From contig CAMOKM010000001.1 of assembly GCA_946617585.1 (NCBI GenBank), positions 8,779-72,778 on the forward strand: 64,000 nucleotides of DNA. Reading direction: 5' to 3'. The notes beneath the pieces were generated by a model. It was given only the letters and a program-made list of their open reading frames with translations. It did not search any database and was not told where the DNA came from. The position numbers were made by a program, and so were the translations under genes. The stretch comes from an uncultured Lachnospiraceae bacterium (lineage in GTDB: Bacteria > Bacillota > Clostridia > Lachnospirales > Lachnospiraceae). Below, piece by piece: positions 39,169-48,115 of this stretch (its first letter is position 1; each line of letters begins with the position of its first letter).

Positions 39169-41172
39169 ATGGATAATAAGGGCAGTCATGTCTTTAAACT
39201 GCATTCGGAATATAAGCCTACAGGCGACCAGCCACAGGCGATAGAAGCGCTTGTAAACGGATTCAGGGAGGGCAATCAGGCGCAGACTCTTCTCGGGGTC
39301 ACGGGATCGGGCAAGACGTTTACCATGGCCAACGTGATCGCATCGCTGAATCTTCCGACGCTGATAATCAGCCATAACAAGACTCTCGCCGGACAATTGT
39401 ACGGCGAGATGAAGGAATTCTTCCCCGAGAACGCGGTGGAGTATTTTGTGTCCTACTATGATTATTATCAGCCCGAGGCATATGTCCCTTCATCTGACAC
39501 ATATATTGAGAAGGATTCATCGATAAACGATGAGATAGACAAGCTCCGTCTGTCGGCGACCGCAGCTCTTTCCGAAAGGAATGATGTGGTGGTGGTGGCC
39601 TCTGTATCCTGTATCTACGGCCTGGGATCTCCCGACGACTATATGCAGATGATGATCTCCCTGAGACCCGGGATGCAAAAAGACAGGGATGAGGTGATCC
39701 ACGAGCTGATCGGGATCAGATACGACAGGGCCGTGGCGGATTTTAAGCGTTCGACCTTCAGAGTGAACGGAGATGTGCTGGATATCTTCCCTGCGGAATC
39801 CGACGATACCGGTGTCAGAGTAGAGTTCTTCGGAGACGAGATAGACCGTATAGTGGAGTTCGACGTGCTCACGGGGCACCTGAGATCCGAGCTGAAGCAT
39901 GTGGCCATCTTTCCGGCATCCCACTATGTGGTCACGCAGGACAAGATGGAGAGAGGCATCGCCGAGATCGAGAAGGAGCTGAAAGAGCGAGTCGAATATT
40001 TCCGTTCCGAGGACAGGCTCATAGAGGCACAGAGGATATCCGAAAGAACGAACTTTGATATAGAAATGATGAGAGAGACAGGCTTCTGCTCGGGGATAGA
40101 GAACTATTCGAGACCTCTGTCCGGGAGGGCTCCGGGCTCTGCGCCCCTCACACTCATGGATTTCTTCCCGGACGACTATCTGCTGATAGTGGATGAGAGC
40201 CATATAACCATTCCCCAGATAGGCGGCATGTATAACGGCGATCAGGCCAGAAAGACCTCTTTGGTCGATTACGGATTCAGACTTCCTTCGGCAAAGGACA
40301 ACAGACCCCTGTCATTTGAAGAGTGGGAAGGACACCTGGACAAGATACTGTTCGTATCGGCTACTCCGGCCGAATACGAGGCAGAACACGAGCTGCTCCG
40401 TGCAGAGCAGATCATACGGCCTACGGGTCTGCTGGATCCTGAGATCTCGGTACGGCCTACGGAGGGTCAGGTGGATGATCTGGTGTCCGAGATCAACAAA
40501 GAGACGGCCAAAAAGGGAAAGATACTCGTCACGACCCTCACGAAACGTATGGCTGAGGATCTCACGGATTATCTCAGAGAGACGGGGATCAGGGTGAAGT
40601 ATCTTCATTCCGACATAGATACTCTCGAGCGGGCCCAGATCATAAGAGATATGCGCCTGGATGTATTTGATGTGCTGGTAGGCATCAACCTGCTGAGGGA
40701 GGGACTGGACATACCGGAGATATCTCTGGTGGCTATCATAGATGCCGACAAGGAGGGCTTCCTTCGCTCTGCCACATCGCTGATACAGACCGTGGGAAGA
40801 GCAGCCAGAAATGCCGAAGGACACGTGATAATGTATGCGGATACCGTCACGGGCTCCATGAAAGAGTGTATAGACGAAACAAACAGAAGACGAAAACTGC
40901 AAATGGAGTATAATGAGAAGAACGGTATCACCCCTCAGACCATAAAGAAAGCGGTCAGAGACCTGATATCCATCTCAAGATCTATCGCAAAGAGCGAATA
41001 CGAGCTCGAAAAGGATCCCGAATCAATGAGCAGAGATGAGCTGAAGAAGGTGATAGATAAGATCGAGAAGCAGATGAGGAAGGCGGCAGCAGAGCTGGAC
41101 TTCGAGACGGCAGCGATGCTGCGTGATAAGATGATAGAGCTTAAGCGTAATCTGATACAGGAGGAGAGATGA
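39169..41172 (+). CDS. uvrB: Excinuclease ABC subunit B
   Basis: [35 protein letters not shown] domain. Confidence 0.97.
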
Positions 41173-41957
41173 TGGGAAAGAAACTGTCTGTAGTCGTACC
41201 CACGTTCAATGAGGCCGGCAATGTGGCGGAGCTTGCCGCCCAGATAGGAGAGGCATTGAAGGGGGTGGATTATAATATCTGGTTCATAGATGACTCAAAT
41301 GACAATACGCCGGAGGTGCTGGAGGCACTGTGCAAAGAGGATGCGCATTGTCATTTCCATCACAGAGAGGGGGATCAGCAGACAGGGCTTGCGACGGCTG
41401 TGATAGAGGGCTTTCATATGGCGGACGGTGATTTCCTCGCCTGCATGGATGCCGATCTTCAGCACCCGCCCAAGGTGCTCCGTCCCATGTATGCCGCCAT
41501 GCTTTCCGGGGCAGACATCTGTGTGCCCTCAAGACTCATCAGGGGCGGCTCCGACGGCGGGCTGAACATAGTGCGCAAGGTGGTGTCAGGGACTGCCAGG
41601 TGGATGGGCAAATTTGCACTGTCTTCTCTCAGGAATATATCCGATCCCACCTCCGGGCTTTTCATGTTCAGAAAGGGGATGCTGGATGGGGCAGACCTCA
41701 GACCGATAGGCTGGAAGATCATGGTCGAAGTGCTGGCAATGTGCGAATACAGGCTCGTGATAGAGATACCATATGAATTCCACGACAGGAATGCGGGAGA
41801 ATCCAAGATATCGAAGAAGGTCTCCATGCAGTATATGGAACAGCTGAAAGACCTGAGAGGACGTGAGATACGTCACGACTCGGTGATCGTGACCAGATGG
41901 TCTCCGGCATTTACCGAATCCATGATCCGCAAGTATTGTCCGACAGAGGAAGTATGA
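41169..41957 (+). CDS. GT2 polyprenol-phosphate hexosyltransferase (DPM1/Ppm1-like)
   Basis: [34 protein letters not shown]. Confidence 0.85.
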
Positions 41958-44812
41958 AAAAGAAAGAAGCAGACATCAGGAAATTTATAAAGATAAGAGG
42001 GGCGAGAGAGCACAATCTGAAGTCTCTCTCGGTGGATATACCGAGGAATCAGCTGGTAGTGATGACAGGCTTGTCCGGATCGGGCAAGTCTTCTCTGGCT
42101 TTTGACACGATATATGCAGAGGGACAGCGACGGTATATGCAGTCACTGTCAAGCTATGCACGTATGTTCCTGGGACAGATGGACAAGCCGGACGTAGAAT
42201 CCATAGAAGGGCTCCCGCCCGCCATATCCATAGACCAGAAGTCCACAAACCGGAACCCGCGCTCCACGGTCGGTACGGTGACGGAGATATATGATTACCT
42301 GAGACTTCTCTATGCGAGGATAGGCATACCCCATTGCCCGGAATGCGGCAAGGTGATAGAGAGACAGACTGCAGATCAGATGGCGGATGCGCTGATGAAG
42401 CTTCCGGAGAGGACGAAGATACAGCTGCTGGCTCCGGTGGTAAGGGGCAAGAAGGGACGCCACGAGAAGGTATTGGAGAGGGCCAGGAAATCCGGATATG
42501 TCAGAGCCATCGTAGACGGATCTCAATATGATCTGTCTGAGGAGATAGAGCTCGATAAGAATATACGTCATTCTATCGATATCGTGGTAGACAGACTGAT
42601 AGTAAAGCAGGGTATAGAGACCCGGCTTGCGGATTCCATAGAGAACGTGCTGGAGATCTCCGATGGTCTGCTGAACGTGGATGTGGACGGCGGAAAAGAG
42701 ACCCTGGCTTTTTCAAACAGCTTTTCCTGTCCGGACTGCGGTATATCGATCCCTCCCATAGAGCCCAGGAGCTTTTCTTTCAACAATCCGTTCGGGGCCT
42801 GTCCCACCTGTGCAGGGCTGGGATACAAGATGGAATTCGATGAAGACCTGATGATCCCGGACAAGACACTGTCTTTCAATGAGGGCTGTGTGAGCTGCAT
42901 GGGATGGATGAACTCCAAGGATCCCGGGAGCTATTCACATGCCCTGCTGGAGGCACTGGCAAAAAAATACAGGTTTTCGCTGGATACCCCTTATGAAAAG
43001 CTTTCCGAAAAGGCAAAGGATATCTTTATTCACGGTACAGGCGGAGAAGCAGTAAAAGTCCACTACAAAGGTCAGCGTTCAGAGGGAGTGTATGAAGACG
43101 CTTTCGAGGGTCTGATAAAGAACATGGAACGCAGATACAGAGAAACCTTTTCGGACTCTGCCAAAGCGGAATACGAGCAGTATATGAGGATCTCTCCCTG
43201 CGAGACATGTAAAGGGCAGCGGCTGAAAAAGGAATCTCTGGCCGTCACGGTGGACGACAAGAACATATTTGAACTGACCGAAATGTCGGTAAAGCAGCTG
43301 CTGAAGTATTTTGATACCATACCGGAGTCTATCACCGAGCAGCAGCAGAGGATAGGCACACAGATAATAAAAGAGATTCATTCGCGGATCCGCTTCATGA
43401 ATGACGTGGGACTGGATTATCTCACTCTTTCCAGAGCGACGGGCACTCTTTCCGGAGGGGAGGCTCAGCGTATCAGGCTCGCCACGCAGATAGGCAGCGG
43501 TCTGGTCGGAGTGGCATATATCCTGGATGAGCCGTCCATAGGACTGCATCAAAGAGACAACGACAAGCTGCTGGCTACGCTCAGGCATCTGCGAGACCTC
43601 GGGAATACGCTGATCGTGGTGGAGCATGACGAGGATACCATGCTGGCGGCAGACCATATCATAGATATAGGACCGGGTGCCGGGATACGCGGCGGTGAGC
43701 TTGTAGCCGAGGGTACTGCGGATGAGATAATGAAGGTGAAGAAGTCGATCACCGGCAGATATCTGTCCGGGGAGCTGTCCATACCGGTGCCGAAGGAGAG
43801 AAGGAAGCCTGCCGGATGGATAGAGATCAGAAAGGCAAGAGAAAATAACCTCAAGAACACAGATGTCAGGATACCGCTGGGTGTGATGACCATAGTGACG
43901 GGGGTGTCCGGATCGGGCAAGTCTTCTCTGATAAACGAGATCCTGTTTAAGACAGCTGCAAAAAAGCTGAACCGCGCGCGTATCATACCGGGGGCGTCCG
44001 ACGGGATAAAGGGTCTGGAGGAGCTGGATAAAGTCATCAATATAGACCAGTCGCCCATCGGGAGGACACCGAGATCCAATCCGGCCACATATACGGGTGT
44101 ATTCGACCTGATCAGGGATCTTTTCGCGGGGACGCAGGAGGCACGTGCAAGAGGTTACAAGAAGGGCCGGTTCTCGTTTAACGTAAAGGGAGGACGATGC
44201 GAAGCCTGCAGCGGAGACGGCATAATAAAGATAGAGATGCATTTCCTGCCGGACGTGTTCGTACCCTGCGATGTATGCCACGGCAAGCGGTACAACAGAG
44301 AGACTCTCGATATCACCTATAAGGGCAGGAATATAGCCGATGTTCTGGACATGACGGTGGAGGAGGCCCTTGATTTCTTTGAGAATGTACCTTCGATAAG
44401 AAACAAGATCCAGACTCTCTATGATGTCGGGCTCGGATATGTAAAGCTGGGTCAGCCTTCCACAGAGCTTTCAGGAGGAGAGGCCCAGAGGATAAAGCTG
44501 GCAGCGGAGCTTTCGAGAAAGAGTACAGGAAGGACCCTGTACATCCTGGATGAGCCGACTACGGGTCTGCACTTCGATGATGTGAAGAAGCTCGTCACCA
44601 TCCTCCAGAGACTTGCCGATATGGGAAATACCGTGGTGGTGATAGAGCACAACCTGGATGTGATCAAATGCGGTGATTATATAGTTGATATGGGGCCGGA
44701 AGGCGGAGACGGCGGGGGTACAGTCGTAGCCTGCGGTACGCCGGAAGAGGTAGCAAAGGTAAAGAAAAGCTATACAGGGTACTACATAGCAAAGATGCTC
44801 GGAAAAAAATAA
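41954..44812 (+). CDS. uvrA: Excinuclease ABC subunit A
   Basis: [18 protein letters not shown], two ABC modules, zinc fingers; ATG 41954 overlaps the GT2 stop. Confidence 0.97.
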
Positions 44813-44826
44813 ATCAAAACAGGGGT

Positions 44827-44853
44827 TAAGAAAACCGGAAAAACTGCCGATGT
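44827..44853 (+). promoter_or_regulatory. Sigma28 (SigD/FliA)-type promoter
   Basis: TAAG-N15-GCCGATGT versus consensus TAAA-N15-GCCGATAW, upstream of flagellar rod genes. Confidence 0.65.
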
Positions 44854-44859
44854 AATATC

Positions 44860-44934
44860 TACATGGAAGTTTTCAGGCGCTCAGCGCTTTCATATATGCA
44901 CGGATGCAGAACACATACTGCATCCGTGTTTTTT
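44860..44934 (+). ncRNA. Candidate small RNA or attenuator leader with two CsrA-type GGA sites
   Basis: Lies between the sigma28 promoter and a terminator; ACATGGAAGT (44861-70) and GCACGGATGC (44898-907). Confidence 0.35.
44898..44934 (+). terminator. Intrinsic terminator
   Basis: GCACGGATGCAG / CTGCATCCGTGT plus TTTTT. Confidence 0.8.
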
Positions 44935-45010
44935 GATTGAAAGTTTTCCGGTTTCGTGGCAATATATAGTATTGGCATTTTGTTGGCAGAAATAGCGAAA
45001 CGAGGAAAAT

Positions 45011-46009
45011 ATGAGCGGAACGGATATAGGAATAGATCTGGGCACGGCCAGTGTGCTGGTGTATATCAGAGGCAAAGGGGTGGTCCTCAAGGAGCCGTCG
45101 GTCGTAGCCTTTGACAGAGATACGAATAAGATAATGGCCATTGGTGAGGAAGCCCGTCTGATGCTTGGGCGTACTCCCGGAAATATCGTAGCGATAAGGC
45201 CCATGAGACAGGGTGTCATCTCGAACTACACTGTCACGGAGAAGATGCTGAAGTACTTCATACAGAAGGCTGTAGGCAAGAGAACGTTCAGGAAGCCCAG
45301 AGTGTGCGTGGGAGTGCCGTCTGCGGCATCCGAAGTCGAGAGGAAGGCCGTGGAGGATGCGGCATACCAGGCGGGAGCAAGAGATGTAAAGATCATCGAG
45401 GAGCCGCTGGCAGCGGCCATCGGAGCCGGGATAGATATCATAAAGGCCTGCGGCAATATGGTCGTGGATATAGGAGGCGGGACCTCCGACATAGCGGTCA
45501 TATCCCTGGGCGGACCGGTGGAGTCGACATCCATAAAGGTGGCAGGCGACGACTTTGACGAGGCTATCGTCAGATACATGAGAAAGAAGCACAATCTTCT
45601 GATAGGCGAGCCGACGGCTGAGGATCTGAAGATCAGTATAGGAGCGGTATTCAAGCAGCCGGAGGTCGACTACATGGATGTAAGGGGCAGAAACCTGCTG
45701 ACGGGACTCCCGGTGACAGTCAAGGTGTCGTCGGAGGAGACGGAAGAGGCCCTGAGAGAGTCGACATCCCAGATCATAGAGGCCATACACAGCGTATTGG
45801 AGCGCACGCCTCCGGAGCTAGCGGCAGATATTGCATCCAGAGGGATAGTGCTCACGGGCGGAGGAGCGATGCTCAGAGGCCTGGAGGAGCTGATAACGGA
45901 AAAGACAGGTATCAACACCATGACGGCAGAGGATCCCATGACCGCCGTGGCGGTGGGTACGGGTAAATACGTAGACTTCATAGCGGGATATCAGGAAGAG
46001 GATAATTAA
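45011..46009 (+). CDS. mreB: MreB-family actin homolog (Mbl-like)
   Basis: GIDLGT, EPSVVA, VDIGGGTSD, LTGGGA. Confidence 0.92.
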   Translation: MSGTDIGIDLGTASVLVYIRGKGVVLKEPSVVAFDRDTNKIMAIGEEARLMLGRTPGNIVAIRPMRQGVISNYTVTEKMLKYFIQKAVGKRTFRKPRVCVGVPSAASEVERKAVEDAAYQAGARDVKIIEEPLAAAIGAGIDIIKACGNMVVDIGGGTSDIAVISLGGPVESTSIKVAGDDFDEAIVRYMRKKHNLLIGEPTAEDLKISIGAVFKQPEVDYMDVRGRNLLTGLPVTVKVSSEETEEALRESTSQIIEAIHSVLERTPPELAADIASRGIVLTGGGAMLRGLEELITEKTGINTMTAEDPMTAVAVGTGKYVDFIAGYQEEDN

Positions 46010-46011
46010 GC

Positions 46012-46812
46012 ATGGTAAAGGGGCTCTACACAGCACACAGCGCAATGATCAACGAACAGCACAGGATGGACACGATGACCAACAACCTGGCTAACGTGTC
46101 GACCACCGGGTACAAGAAGGAGGGTGCTACTTCTCAGACCTTTGCGGACGCGCTCGCAGTAAAGCTCAAGGATTCTTCCGAGTGGTATCTGTCCAGAAGA
46201 CTCGGCAATATGCAGCCGGGAGTTAAGATAGGTGAGAACTATACAGATTGGTCCGAGGGCGGCTTCAGAGGTACGGACAACACCTTTGACCTCGCACTTT
46301 CGGATTCCGGATTCTTCCGCATAGAATTCCAGGATAAAAACGGCAACGTGAGCGAGAAGTACACGAGAGACGGATCCTTCACTCTGACCAAAGAAGGGGT
46401 ACTGGTGACCAAGGACGGAGACTTTGTCCTTGACTCCAACGGCAACCACATCCAGCTGGATCCCATGCAGGATACCACCATTGACAGACAGGGAAACATC
46501 ACTCAGGGGGCCAACAATCAGATCATAGCGACGATAGGAGTCGTCGATTTCGAGAGAAACGAAGAGGGCACGGACTATTATTATCTGGAAAAGTACGGAG
46601 AGAATATGTGGCAGACGGTGGACGGAGCCACGGAGATCCCCTCGAATGCACAGATATACTCCGGCTATCTTGAGCAGTCCAATGTGGAGACAGTTCAGGA
46701 GATGGTCAATATGATAGCGATAAACAGGCAATATGAGATAAACCAGAAAGTGATACAGACTATGGACACGAGTCTGGAAACGGCTGTGAATCAGCTCGGT
46801 AAACTGAGATAA
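46012..46812 (+). CDS. flgF: Flagellar hook-basal body rod protein (FlgF/FlhO-like)
   Basis: NNLANVSTTGYK, YTRDGSF, LEQSNV..V.EM. Confidence 0.8.
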   Translation: MVKGLYTAHSAMINEQHRMDTMTNNLANVSTTGYKKEGATSQTFADALAVKLKDSSEWYLSRRLGNMQPGVKIGENYTDWSEGGFRGTDNTFDLALSDSGFFRIEFQDKNGNVSEKYTRDGSFTLTKEGVLVTKDGDFVLDSNGNHIQLDPMQDTTIDRQGNITQGANNQIIATIGVVDFERNEEGTDYYYLEKYGENMWQTVDGATEIPSNAQIYSGYLEQSNVETVQEMVNMIAINRQYEINQKVIQTMDTSLETAVNQLGKLR

Positions 46813-46831
46813 GAAAGGGAGGGGTGTACTG

Positions 46832-47656
46832 ATGGTTAGATCGCTTTGGACCGCAGCAACTGGAATGATAGCCCAGCAGAACAATGTGGATACTATCGCA
46901 AACAATCTTGCCAATGTGAACACGACAGGGTATAAGACGGAGACGAATGAATTCAAGAGCCTCCTGTATCAGACACTCCAGACAAAGACCACTACAGCTC
47001 ATGCGGTGGAGAATAAGCCCATAGGAGCACAGGTAGGACTGGGTGTGAGAAATGCTTCCATCACGTCACAGTTTACCAACGGCGCTCTGCTGGAGTCAGA
47101 GAGTGCTACCAGCTTTGCCATTCAGGGCAAAGGTTTCTTTGCGGTAAGGGGAAATGACGGGCAGACATATTATACGAGAAACGGCGATTTCAACTTCATG
47201 ATGAACGCCCAGGGAGGACTCACCCTCGCGAACTCCGACGGTCTCCCGGTACTGAATACGAACGGTCAGCCGATCACACTGAACGGGAACTACATCGCCA
47301 ACCGGGTCGAGGTGGATGCCACGGGACAGCTCATGTATCCTGATGCTCAGAACAACCCGCAGCCCATTGCCGGGATGCAGATAGGCATGACGCAGTTCCA
47401 GAATCCCAAGGGCCTTACCAAGGAGGGAGATTCCCTGTATGCGGTTTCTGCCGCATCCGGACAGCCGATGAACGAAGCGACCAACAACAACCTGGAGAAA
47501 TCCGTGATCAGACAGGGATATCTGGAGGGATCCAATGTCCAGGTTGCCGATGAGATGGTCAACCTGATCGTGGCACAGAGAGCTTACGAGCTTAACTCCA
47601 AAGCCATAACCACAACCGATGACATGATGCAGACAGCGAACCAGCTGAAGAGATGA
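46832..47656 (+). CDS. flgG: Flagellar distal rod protein FlgG (FlhP-like)
   Basis: ANNLANVNTTGYK, YTRNGDF, QGYLEGSNV..EMVNLIVAQRAYE.NSK. Confidence 0.88.
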   Translation: MVRSLWTAATGMIAQQNNVDTIANNLANVNTTGYKTETNEFKSLLYQTLQTKTTTAHAVENKPIGAQVGLGVRNASITSQFTNGALLESESATSFAIQGKGFFAVRGNDGQTYYTRNGDFNFMMNAQGGLTLANSDGLPVLNTNGQPITLNGNYIANRVEVDATGQLMYPDAQNNPQPIAGMQIGMTQFQNPKGLTKEGDSLYAVSAASGQPMNEATNNNLEKSVIRQGYLEGSNVQVADEMVNLIVAQRAYELNSKAITTTDDMMQTANQLKR

Positions 47657-47677: not shown

Positions 47678-48115
47678 ATGGATATAGACAGCAGTTATCT
47701 GACAAATCTATCAAGCCAGGCGGTTTCCGAGGCCAATGCGTCAAAGCTGAAGAGCACGCTCTCGAGCATTTCTGAGAACGGCAGCAGGGTAAAGGCCAAG
47801 GGAAGCGGTGTAAACTCGGCTGAAGAGGAAAAGCTTCTCGATGCATGCAAGCAGTTCGAGAGTTATTTTGTCGAGCAGATGTTCAAGGAGATGATGAAGA
47901 CCGTTCCCAAGGATGCCCTTGACACGGGGTCCAACAGCATGCTTGTGGACTATTACAAGGATAATCTTGTGAAGGAATATGCTGCAGAGGCTACGGAAAA
48001 GGAGAGTCTCGGACTCGCTCAGATGCTTTATGAGCAGATGAAGCGTAATATCGGTATCACTCCGGAGGAGGCAGATGCAAAAGCGGCAGCGGCATCGGGC
48101 TCCGGAAAAAAGTAA
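47678..48115 (+). CDS. flgJ: Rod-binding protein (FlgJ N-domain only)
   Basis: ACKQFESYF.EQMFKEM, GLAQMLYEQM. Confidence 0.8.
   Translation: MDIDSSYLTNLSSQAVSEANASKLKSTLSSISENGSRVKAKGSGVNSAEEEKLLDACKQFESYFVEQMFKEMMKTVPKDALDTGSNSMLVDYYKDNLVKEYAAEATEKESLGLAQMLYEQMKRNIGITPEEADAKAAAASGSGKK

Follow-up and report, generated by a model that had tools for sequence, protein, structure and literature searches.

What is the short, structured stretch between uvrA and mreB in a genome of an uncultured Lachnospiraceae bacterium from the rumen, and does it govern expression of the flagellar rod genes that follow? We analyzed a 64,000-nucleotide stretch of this genome, referred to here as the window. An initial annotation made from the sequence alone had noted in the uvrA-mreB spacer a sigma-28 promoter, two GGA sites resembling CsrA-binding sites, a small GC hairpin and a strong terminator, and had proposed either a CsrA sponge of roughly 75 nt or an attenuator in which CsrA binding permits read-through into the rod genes. 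Its mundane alternative was that the hairpin is only the uvrA terminator. We wanted to know whether these elements are really present, to which gene they belong, and which of these readings fits best. The features of the region, all on the + strand, are as follows.

41897-44812 (+): uvrA, the upstream neighbor (Pfam UvrA domains), with its stop codon at 44810-44812 and no terminator of its own before the element.
44826-44853 (+): sigma-28 (SigD/FliA) type promoter, TTAAGAAA, 12 nt, GCCGATGT; read the other way, TAAG (44827-30), 15 nt, GCCGATGT (44846-53).
44859-44870 (+): GGA site 1 (CUACAUGGAAGU), at the predicted 5' end of the RNA, whose start site near 44860 is inferred.
44875-44889 (+): small 6-bp GC hairpin, not conserved and probably an insertion without a role of its own.
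44896-44907 (+): GGA site 2 (AUGCACGGAUGC), overlapping the 5' arm of the terminator.
44898-44934 (+): intrinsic terminator, with a 12-bp stem (44898-44909 paired with 44918-44929), an 8-nt loop and a T6 run ending at 44934.
44937-44966 (+): probable sigma-A promoter of the operon (TTGAAA, 17-18 nt, CAATAT/AATATA), inferred from conservation.
45011-46009 (+): mreB/mbl-like gene, the first gene of the operon (Pfam MreB_Mbl, 461 bits).
46012-47656 (+): flgF-like (46012-46812) and flgG-like (46832-47656) distal rod genes (Pfam Flg_bb_rod, LlgE_F_G_D1 and Flg_bbr_C).
47678-48115 (+): flgJ-like gene for a rod-binding protein (Pfam Rod-binding).

The sequence elements described in the initial annotation are all present in the 198-nt spacer, and its observation is therefore confirmed. 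The two GGA sites read CTACATGGAAGT and ATGCACGGATGC. The 86-nt stretch 44855-44940 folds at -29.5 kcal/mol (z = -4.5 against shuffles), and a terminator scan identified this hairpin as the only + strand terminator between positions 44000 and 46000. Default folding gives a strong terminator, and no competing antiterminator structure is evident. Two points of the earlier description need correction. First, the small GC hairpin is an insertion shared only with the closest relative (genome G023), and no role for it is supported. Second, the GGA of site 2, described as lying in a hairpin loop, is inside the terminator stem in the finished RNA; it sits in a loop (UGCA[CGGA]UGCA, -2.4 kcal/mol) only in the nascent RNA, before the 3' arm is made. 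The sigma-A promoter between the terminator and mreB had been missed. A sigma-70 consensus scan did not call it either, and we infer it from the conservation of TTGAAA-N17-TAnnnT/TATAAT at this place in nearly all relatives. Upstream of uvrA, in the region 39169-44812, an ORF for a family-2 glycosyltransferase (41169-41957) sits between uvrB and uvrA and overlaps the uvrB stop by 4 nt and the longest uvrA ORF by 61 nt, so the true uvrA start is probably later.

Next, we analyzed whether the GGA sites stand out by sequence alone. Each of them matches the CsrA SELEX consensus RUACARGGAUGU at 9 of 12 positions, but such matches are common: the + strand of the window contains 86 of them, and GCANGGAYGC occurs 56 times in the genome against about 31 expected. 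Single-genome statistics therefore give no support, and the significance comes from conservation instead of from the match. The two sites are 37 nt apart in the window, within the 10-63 nt that one CsrA dimer is reported to span (Mercante et al. 2009).

The presence of csrA and the conservation of the GGA sites had been set beforehand as conditions on which the CsrA idea would stand or fall, and both came out in its favor. The genome (a MAG of 2.04 Mb, 84% complete, in 180 contigs) encodes fliW and csrA, which overlap by one base and are followed by a flaG-like gene, and it also encodes a FliA/SigD sigma factor (FliA_WhiG, 268 bits, above the 190-bit cut-off). The promoter matches the Butyrivibrio sigma-28 consensus TAAA-N16-17-MCGATAa cited in PMC3720852, and it is conserved in species of the same genus and in other genera as TAAAG/TTAAG/TCAG-N15-16-GCCGATAT/AA. 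A promoter of this type is expected to start transcription 7-9 nt after the -10 element.

Other sigma-28-like promoters in the genome stand ahead of a flagellin-like gene, a FlgM-like gene, a YjfB-type gene and others. Outside the window (contigs C5, C40, C42 and C98), four of five such leaders, which include those of the FlgM-like gene and of three ORFs, carry short hairpins with NGGA in the loop (AAACGGAUUU, AUCAACGGAUUGAU, GUAUCUGGAUGAUAC), and the fifth, ahead of the flagellin-like gene, has two GGA motifs. Most of the leaders of these other promoters have such hairpins ahead of the ribosome-binding site, which is the layout known for CsrA control of flagellin in B. subtilis (PMC7652899), and this suggests a broad CsrA-type regulon among late flagellar genes, although the comparison of flagellin leaders within this genome was limited by contig breaks. 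Within the window, a second sigma-28-like promoter (TTAGGAAC...GACCGATAT, 33885-33911) stands 57 nt ahead of a 70-aa ORF of the YjfB_motility family (33969-34181, Pfam 72 bits); its leader has a hairpin but no clear GGA loop. A repeated sequence, GCATGGATGCGAATAA..CCGTCC.CGTGA, at both ends of contig C62 and at the start of contig C144 may be the termini of a mobile element and is unrelated to the finding.

We then compared the uvrA-mreB spacers of about 20 species of the same genus. They keep the promoter, a GGA site inside or at the 5' base of a terminator, and a sigma-A promoter behind it, in three architectures. The first, that of the window, has site 1 at the 5' end plus GCACGGAYGC as the 5' arm. 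The second is a minimal type with only UGCAGGGACGCA plus the 3' arm, giving an RNA of about 38 nt. The third has UCAAAGGAAUUG plus ACGCAnGGAUGCAU at the base of a long terminator hairpin. In an alignment of ten species of the first type, which belong to the clade of the window, the CCGAT core of the -10 element, the core of site 1 (TnCAnGGA), site 2 (GCAnGGAnGC) and the 3' arm are invariant, while loops and spacers vary. The possibility that the leader encodes a small peptide, MEVFRR..., starting from the ATG at 44863 within site 1, was rejected because this ATG is not conserved, being lost in G023 and in another species (G017). One species of the genus (genome G020, locus L007, 1924-2058) has an expanded version with five GGA motifs between the promoter and the terminator (AAAUGGACGG, CGGAUGC, AUAUGGACAG, ACAAGGAUGG, GCACGGACGC), which is the most sponge-like copy seen.

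To rule out the possibility that the hairpin is conserved only as the terminator of uvrA, we examined loci in which uvrA is not the upstream gene. The module is still directly ahead of mreB at locus L020, where a divergent gene lies upstream, and at locus L025, where the end of a glycyl-radical-enzyme-like gene lies upstream. Conversely, downstream of uvrA in a genome where mreB is not adjacent (L016), an unrelated terminator is found. Among 72 further loci with enough flanking sequence, the module is present in 41 of 59 with uvrA upstream and in 8 of 13 without it. Thus, in 10 loci without uvrA upstream the module stays with mreB. The hairpin probably also ends uvrA transcripts in this window, but that is not why it is conserved.

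By covariance-model match or inspection, the module is present in about 51 of 80 loci from other Lachnospiraceae, upstream of mbl-flgF-flgG in many genera, with records labelled Acetatifactor, Roseburia and Eisenbergiella among them. Its usual parts are TAAAG-N15/16-GCCGATAA, then 8-16 nt, AAGCAYGGAYGCAG, an inner hairpin ACGG[AnGGAA]CCGU, a 3' arm that pairs with GGAYGCAG, a U run, and a conserved sigma-A promoter, CCCTTTGAAAA-N17-TATAAT. In an alignment of 29 such canonical copies from other genera and species, GCAnGGAnGC is invariant and CGG-A-n-GG-A-A-C-C-G is invariant or nearly so. RNAalifold gives an outer and an inner stem with the second GGA in the apical loop, and in 27 canonical copies the two GGAs are 20-24 nt apart (median 22). 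The stem is kept by compensatory changes: 94.6% of cells are paired, against 36-58% when the partners are slid, and 8 of 13 pairs show changes on both sides. In the outer stem the site bases G, G, G, C never change while their partners change only between C and U, whereas pairs outside the site change on both sides, which is the pattern expected when one arm must keep both a sequence and a pairing. About 60-120 nt upstream of mreB in loci L063-L142 of other genera, and at 44937-44966 in the window, the -35 region of the sigma-A promoter is unusually conserved (AAACCCCTTTGAAAA), more than a -35 hexamer needs, so it may be an extra regulator site or an UP element.

Searches of Rfam 15 with the window (E up to 10) and with 16 relatives (E up to 1) gave no match to a Csr/Rsm model and no family of this kind, only noise (rli24 at E 8, PVX_3 at E 0.13). 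Literature searches found no description of the motif, and no CsrA-binding small RNA or CsrA-controlled terminator in Firmicutes. To determine copy number, we built a covariance model of the canonical form (R1). In the genome of the window it finds only the window copy (29 bits), and in each of five other genomes of 3-4.8 Mb exactly one copy. Among 150 genera of the family it gives six strong hits, of which five lie next to the independently found flgF locus and the sixth at a contig end; weak hits in four further genomes (G060, G075, G080 and G087; E 0.0003-0.007) were treated as noise. Over 100 loci it matches only 100-260 nt upstream of mreB, apart from weak reverse-strand echoes of the same hairpins. 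A gene for CsrA is present in all six genomes checked, that of the window and the five others.

A search with R1 of 150 genomes across the class gave only three weak hits (33-35 bits), which are ordinary terminators in unrelated contexts; as this sample contained only three Lachnospiraceae and variants like that of the window score low, it does not show absence elsewhere. At one locus from another Clostridia family (L169, 1501-1556, reverse strand; 34.8 bits, E 1.5e-4), a sigma-A promoter is followed by AGCAAGGACGC...GAGGAAUAUCCUC...GCGGCGUC-U7 ahead of an ORF that looks like an ATP-synthase a subunit. The layout of a GGA site at the terminator base is the same, in an unrelated context, and it could be chance or a second use of the same device. 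A pattern search for CCGATA-N4-34-GCANGGAYG in five genomes found, apart from four of the five known copies, only coding-region matches at the level of the reversed-pattern control.

Several genera have the sigma-28 promoter at the same place, upstream of the sigma-A promoter, but no terminator and at most one GGA (loci L046, L062, L068, L071, L075, L085, L132 and L136-138, with records labelled Agathobacter, Roseburia, Acetatifactor and Kineothrix among them). The ancestral task of this promoter is therefore to drive the rod operon. This fits B. subtilis, where flhO, the first gene of the homologous flhO-flhP operon, is listed among SigD-controlled genes (PMC5540618; the homology and the mbl linkage are noted in PMC3720852). 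Where the terminator is present, sigma-D transcription can only reach the operon by read-through.

Six runs on record as RNA contain part of the window, of which four were compared with it, all as assembled contigs. In one metatranscriptome run (X5), a single contig of 1359 nt covers 44872-46230. It begins 12 nt after the predicted start site, crosses the terminator and the 44935-44970 gap between the terminator and the sigma-A start region, and ends inside flgF. None of the four runs covers 44300-44835, which includes the uvrA 3' end, and contigs of the other three begin at 45044-45055. Because contigs show neither strand nor true ends and DNA carry-over cannot be excluded, this single contig is a hint, not proof, that molecules starting at the sigma-28 promoter read through. 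No short RNA is visible, but a 75-nt RNA would not be seen in such data, and we do not use any of this as evidence of absence.

Taken together, the interpretation offered in the initial annotation is partly supported, with the evidence leaning to the attenuator over the sponge: the element is single-copy and stays ahead of mreB-flgFG, its most conserved GGA overlaps the base of the terminator, relatives without the terminator keep the sigma-28 promoter, and an RNA-library contig bridges the terminator. Our tentative reading, which we favor over each rival while holding it slightly less likely than not, is that the element is the sigma-D dependent leader of the mbl-flgF-flgG-flgJ operon and works as a protein-controlled attenuator. 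In this view, sigma-D RNA polymerase starts near 44860 and by default the transcript ends at the terminator, yielding an RNA of about 75 nt. A CsrA dimer gripping both GGAs on the nascent RNA, the second one being at the 5' end in this clade and in the apical loop in most other genera, would hold open the basal pairs next to the U run, and polymerase would then read through into the rod genes, while the downstream sigma-A promoter would supply basal expression. Free CsrA signals that flagellin is not being exported, because FliW is then tied up by flagellin, and the circuit would therefore raise rod and basal-body synthesis when it is needed. The layout fits an attenuator, in that the terminator lies between a promoter and the genes it serves, on the same strand and with no gene between, as in all relatives, and GCAnGGAnGC overlaps the basal 5' arm in all architectures, although this last point concerns sequence geometry only. 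What the analysis itself establishes is the anatomy, its conservation, its single-copy linkage to the operon, the presence of csrA, fliW and fliA, and one bridging contig; binding by CsrA, the direction of its effect, the dependence of the start on sigma-28 and of read-through on CsrA, and the physiological logic are inferred.

Several facts weigh against this reading. The CsrA sites are putative, resting on sequence resemblance and flagellar context, and could serve another factor. Some relatives (L010, L014, L015, L020 and L066) have a single GGA and an RNA of about 38 nt, a poor substrate for a two-site clamp. In several canonical copies the inner hairpin is itself followed by a short U run and might terminate even if the basal stem is held open. 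CsrA is not known to control any intrinsic terminator, and the downstream sigma-A promoter means that the operon does not need read-through.

The rival that survives best, although we consider it unlikely, is a stand-alone sigma-D dependent small RNA of about 75 nt here and 40-70 nt elsewhere, which would titrate CsrA in trans as a mimic of the flagellin leader and boost flagellin translation once sigma-D is active, its position ahead of mbl being inherited synteny. It would explain the element's own promoter and strong terminator with a separate sigma-A promoter behind them, and the exposed apical GGA of canonical copies, which have 3-5 GGA per RNA. The layout GGCA[YGGA]UGCC plus a GGA-loop hairpin also resembles CsrA-binding hairpins of flagellin leaders, such as BS1 of B. 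subtilis hag. However, it does not explain the single copy at the same operon even after the upstream neighbor changed, a linkage that argues for action in cis, nor why the best-conserved GGA is buried in, or abuts, a stem whose pairing is conserved. The sites are also few: Rsm/Csr RNAs have 4-22, the window copy has two, one of them paired, and the shortest copies have one and would bind poorly. The bridging contig speaks against it as well. The two readings can coexist, the small RNA being the terminated product of the same leader.

Somewhat less likely still is a sigma-D leader with a leaky or otherwise tuned terminator that does not involve CsrA, the GGA-containing sequence being kept for another RNA-binding protein, RNA stability or processing, or pausing. 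GGA-containing 12-mers are common, and read-through may simply be constitutive. Against it, ten positions, GCAnGGAnGC, conserved together with a second GGA at fixed spacing across many genera go far beyond what a terminator needs, their core is the known CsrA recognition triplet, csrA is present in all six genomes checked, and GGA hairpins of the same kind occur in other sigma-28 leaders. That the hairpin is only the uvrA terminator, with chance promoter and GGA matches, is rejected as very unlikely although it is the only terminator after uvrA in the window, because the module stays with mreB without uvrA, is missing after uvrA where mreB is elsewhere, and has its promoter and GGA sites conserved across genera.

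Among the closest known systems is the hag (flagellin) leader of B. subtilis, the target of the CsrA-FliW-Hag partner switch, which likewise belongs to the flagellar regulon and has a sigma-D promoter and GGA sites, one of them in a small hairpin, in a Firmicute with fliW next to csrA. In hag, however, the second site overlaps the Shine-Dalgarno sequence and CsrA blocks translation, whereas here there is no Shine-Dalgarno sequence or start codon within the RNA, the conserved site overlaps an intrinsic terminator, and mreB starts 76 nt after that terminator, behind another promoter. Protein-dependent antitermination leaders (LicT/SacY-RAT, HutP and, by contrast, TRAP and PyrR) share a promoter-proximal terminator whose 5' arm overlaps the presumed protein site, so that binding and termination exclude each other, and the small alternative hairpin UGCA[CGGA]UGCA can form from the 5' arm, like a RAT. 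The present element differs in its presumed protein, in having a second, constitutive promoter downstream, and in showing no sequence or Rfam relationship to RAT or other known leaders. In the E. coli pgaA leader, CsrA binding to two sites also changes an RNA hairpin and thereby transcript elongation (PMC7652899), but there it exposes rut sites and promotes Rho-dependent termination, while here it would open an intrinsic terminator and prevent termination. Finally, the Csr/Rsm sponge RNAs (CsrB/C, RsmX/Y/Z) and the C. jejuni flaA mRNA, a CsrA titrator, share GGA motifs in hairpin loops, including the terminator loop in canonical copies, and the present RNA would likewise antagonize CsrA in a flagellar circuit. 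It has only 2-5 GGA with the most conserved one paired, is sigma-28 driven instead of GacA/UvrY driven, is single-copy and linked to one operon, and has no Rfam match. No CsrA-titrating small RNA was found for Firmicutes in the literature searched, which names FliW as the antagonist.

CsrA is among the most widespread bacterial RNA-binding regulators, and in Firmicutes its known repertoire is almost limited to blocking flagellin translation under the control of FliW. It is possible, though more likely wrong than right, that CsrA acts here as an antiterminator at an intrinsic terminator, clamping a GGA at the base of the 5' arm and a second one 20-37 nt away, and so couples the FliW-CsrA-flagellin secretion checkpoint to transcription of the distal rod genes. 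This would be a new regulatory mode for CsrA and the first conserved non-coding CsrA-binding RNA motif in Firmicutes, where only the protein FliW is known as a partner, and the terminated product might in addition titrate CsrA; even under the sponge reading it would be the first CsrA-titrating small RNA in Firmicutes. With 40-75 nt, two sites and one hairpin, it is also a small and directly testable system. If it works as proposed, this widely conserved leader RNA would add a transcriptional output of CsrA, a feedback from the state of flagellin export to basal-body synthesis, and a meaning for the conserved but unexplained mbl-flgF-flgG-flgJ locus of gut and rumen Lachnospiraceae, the significance of which is called unknown in PMC3720852.
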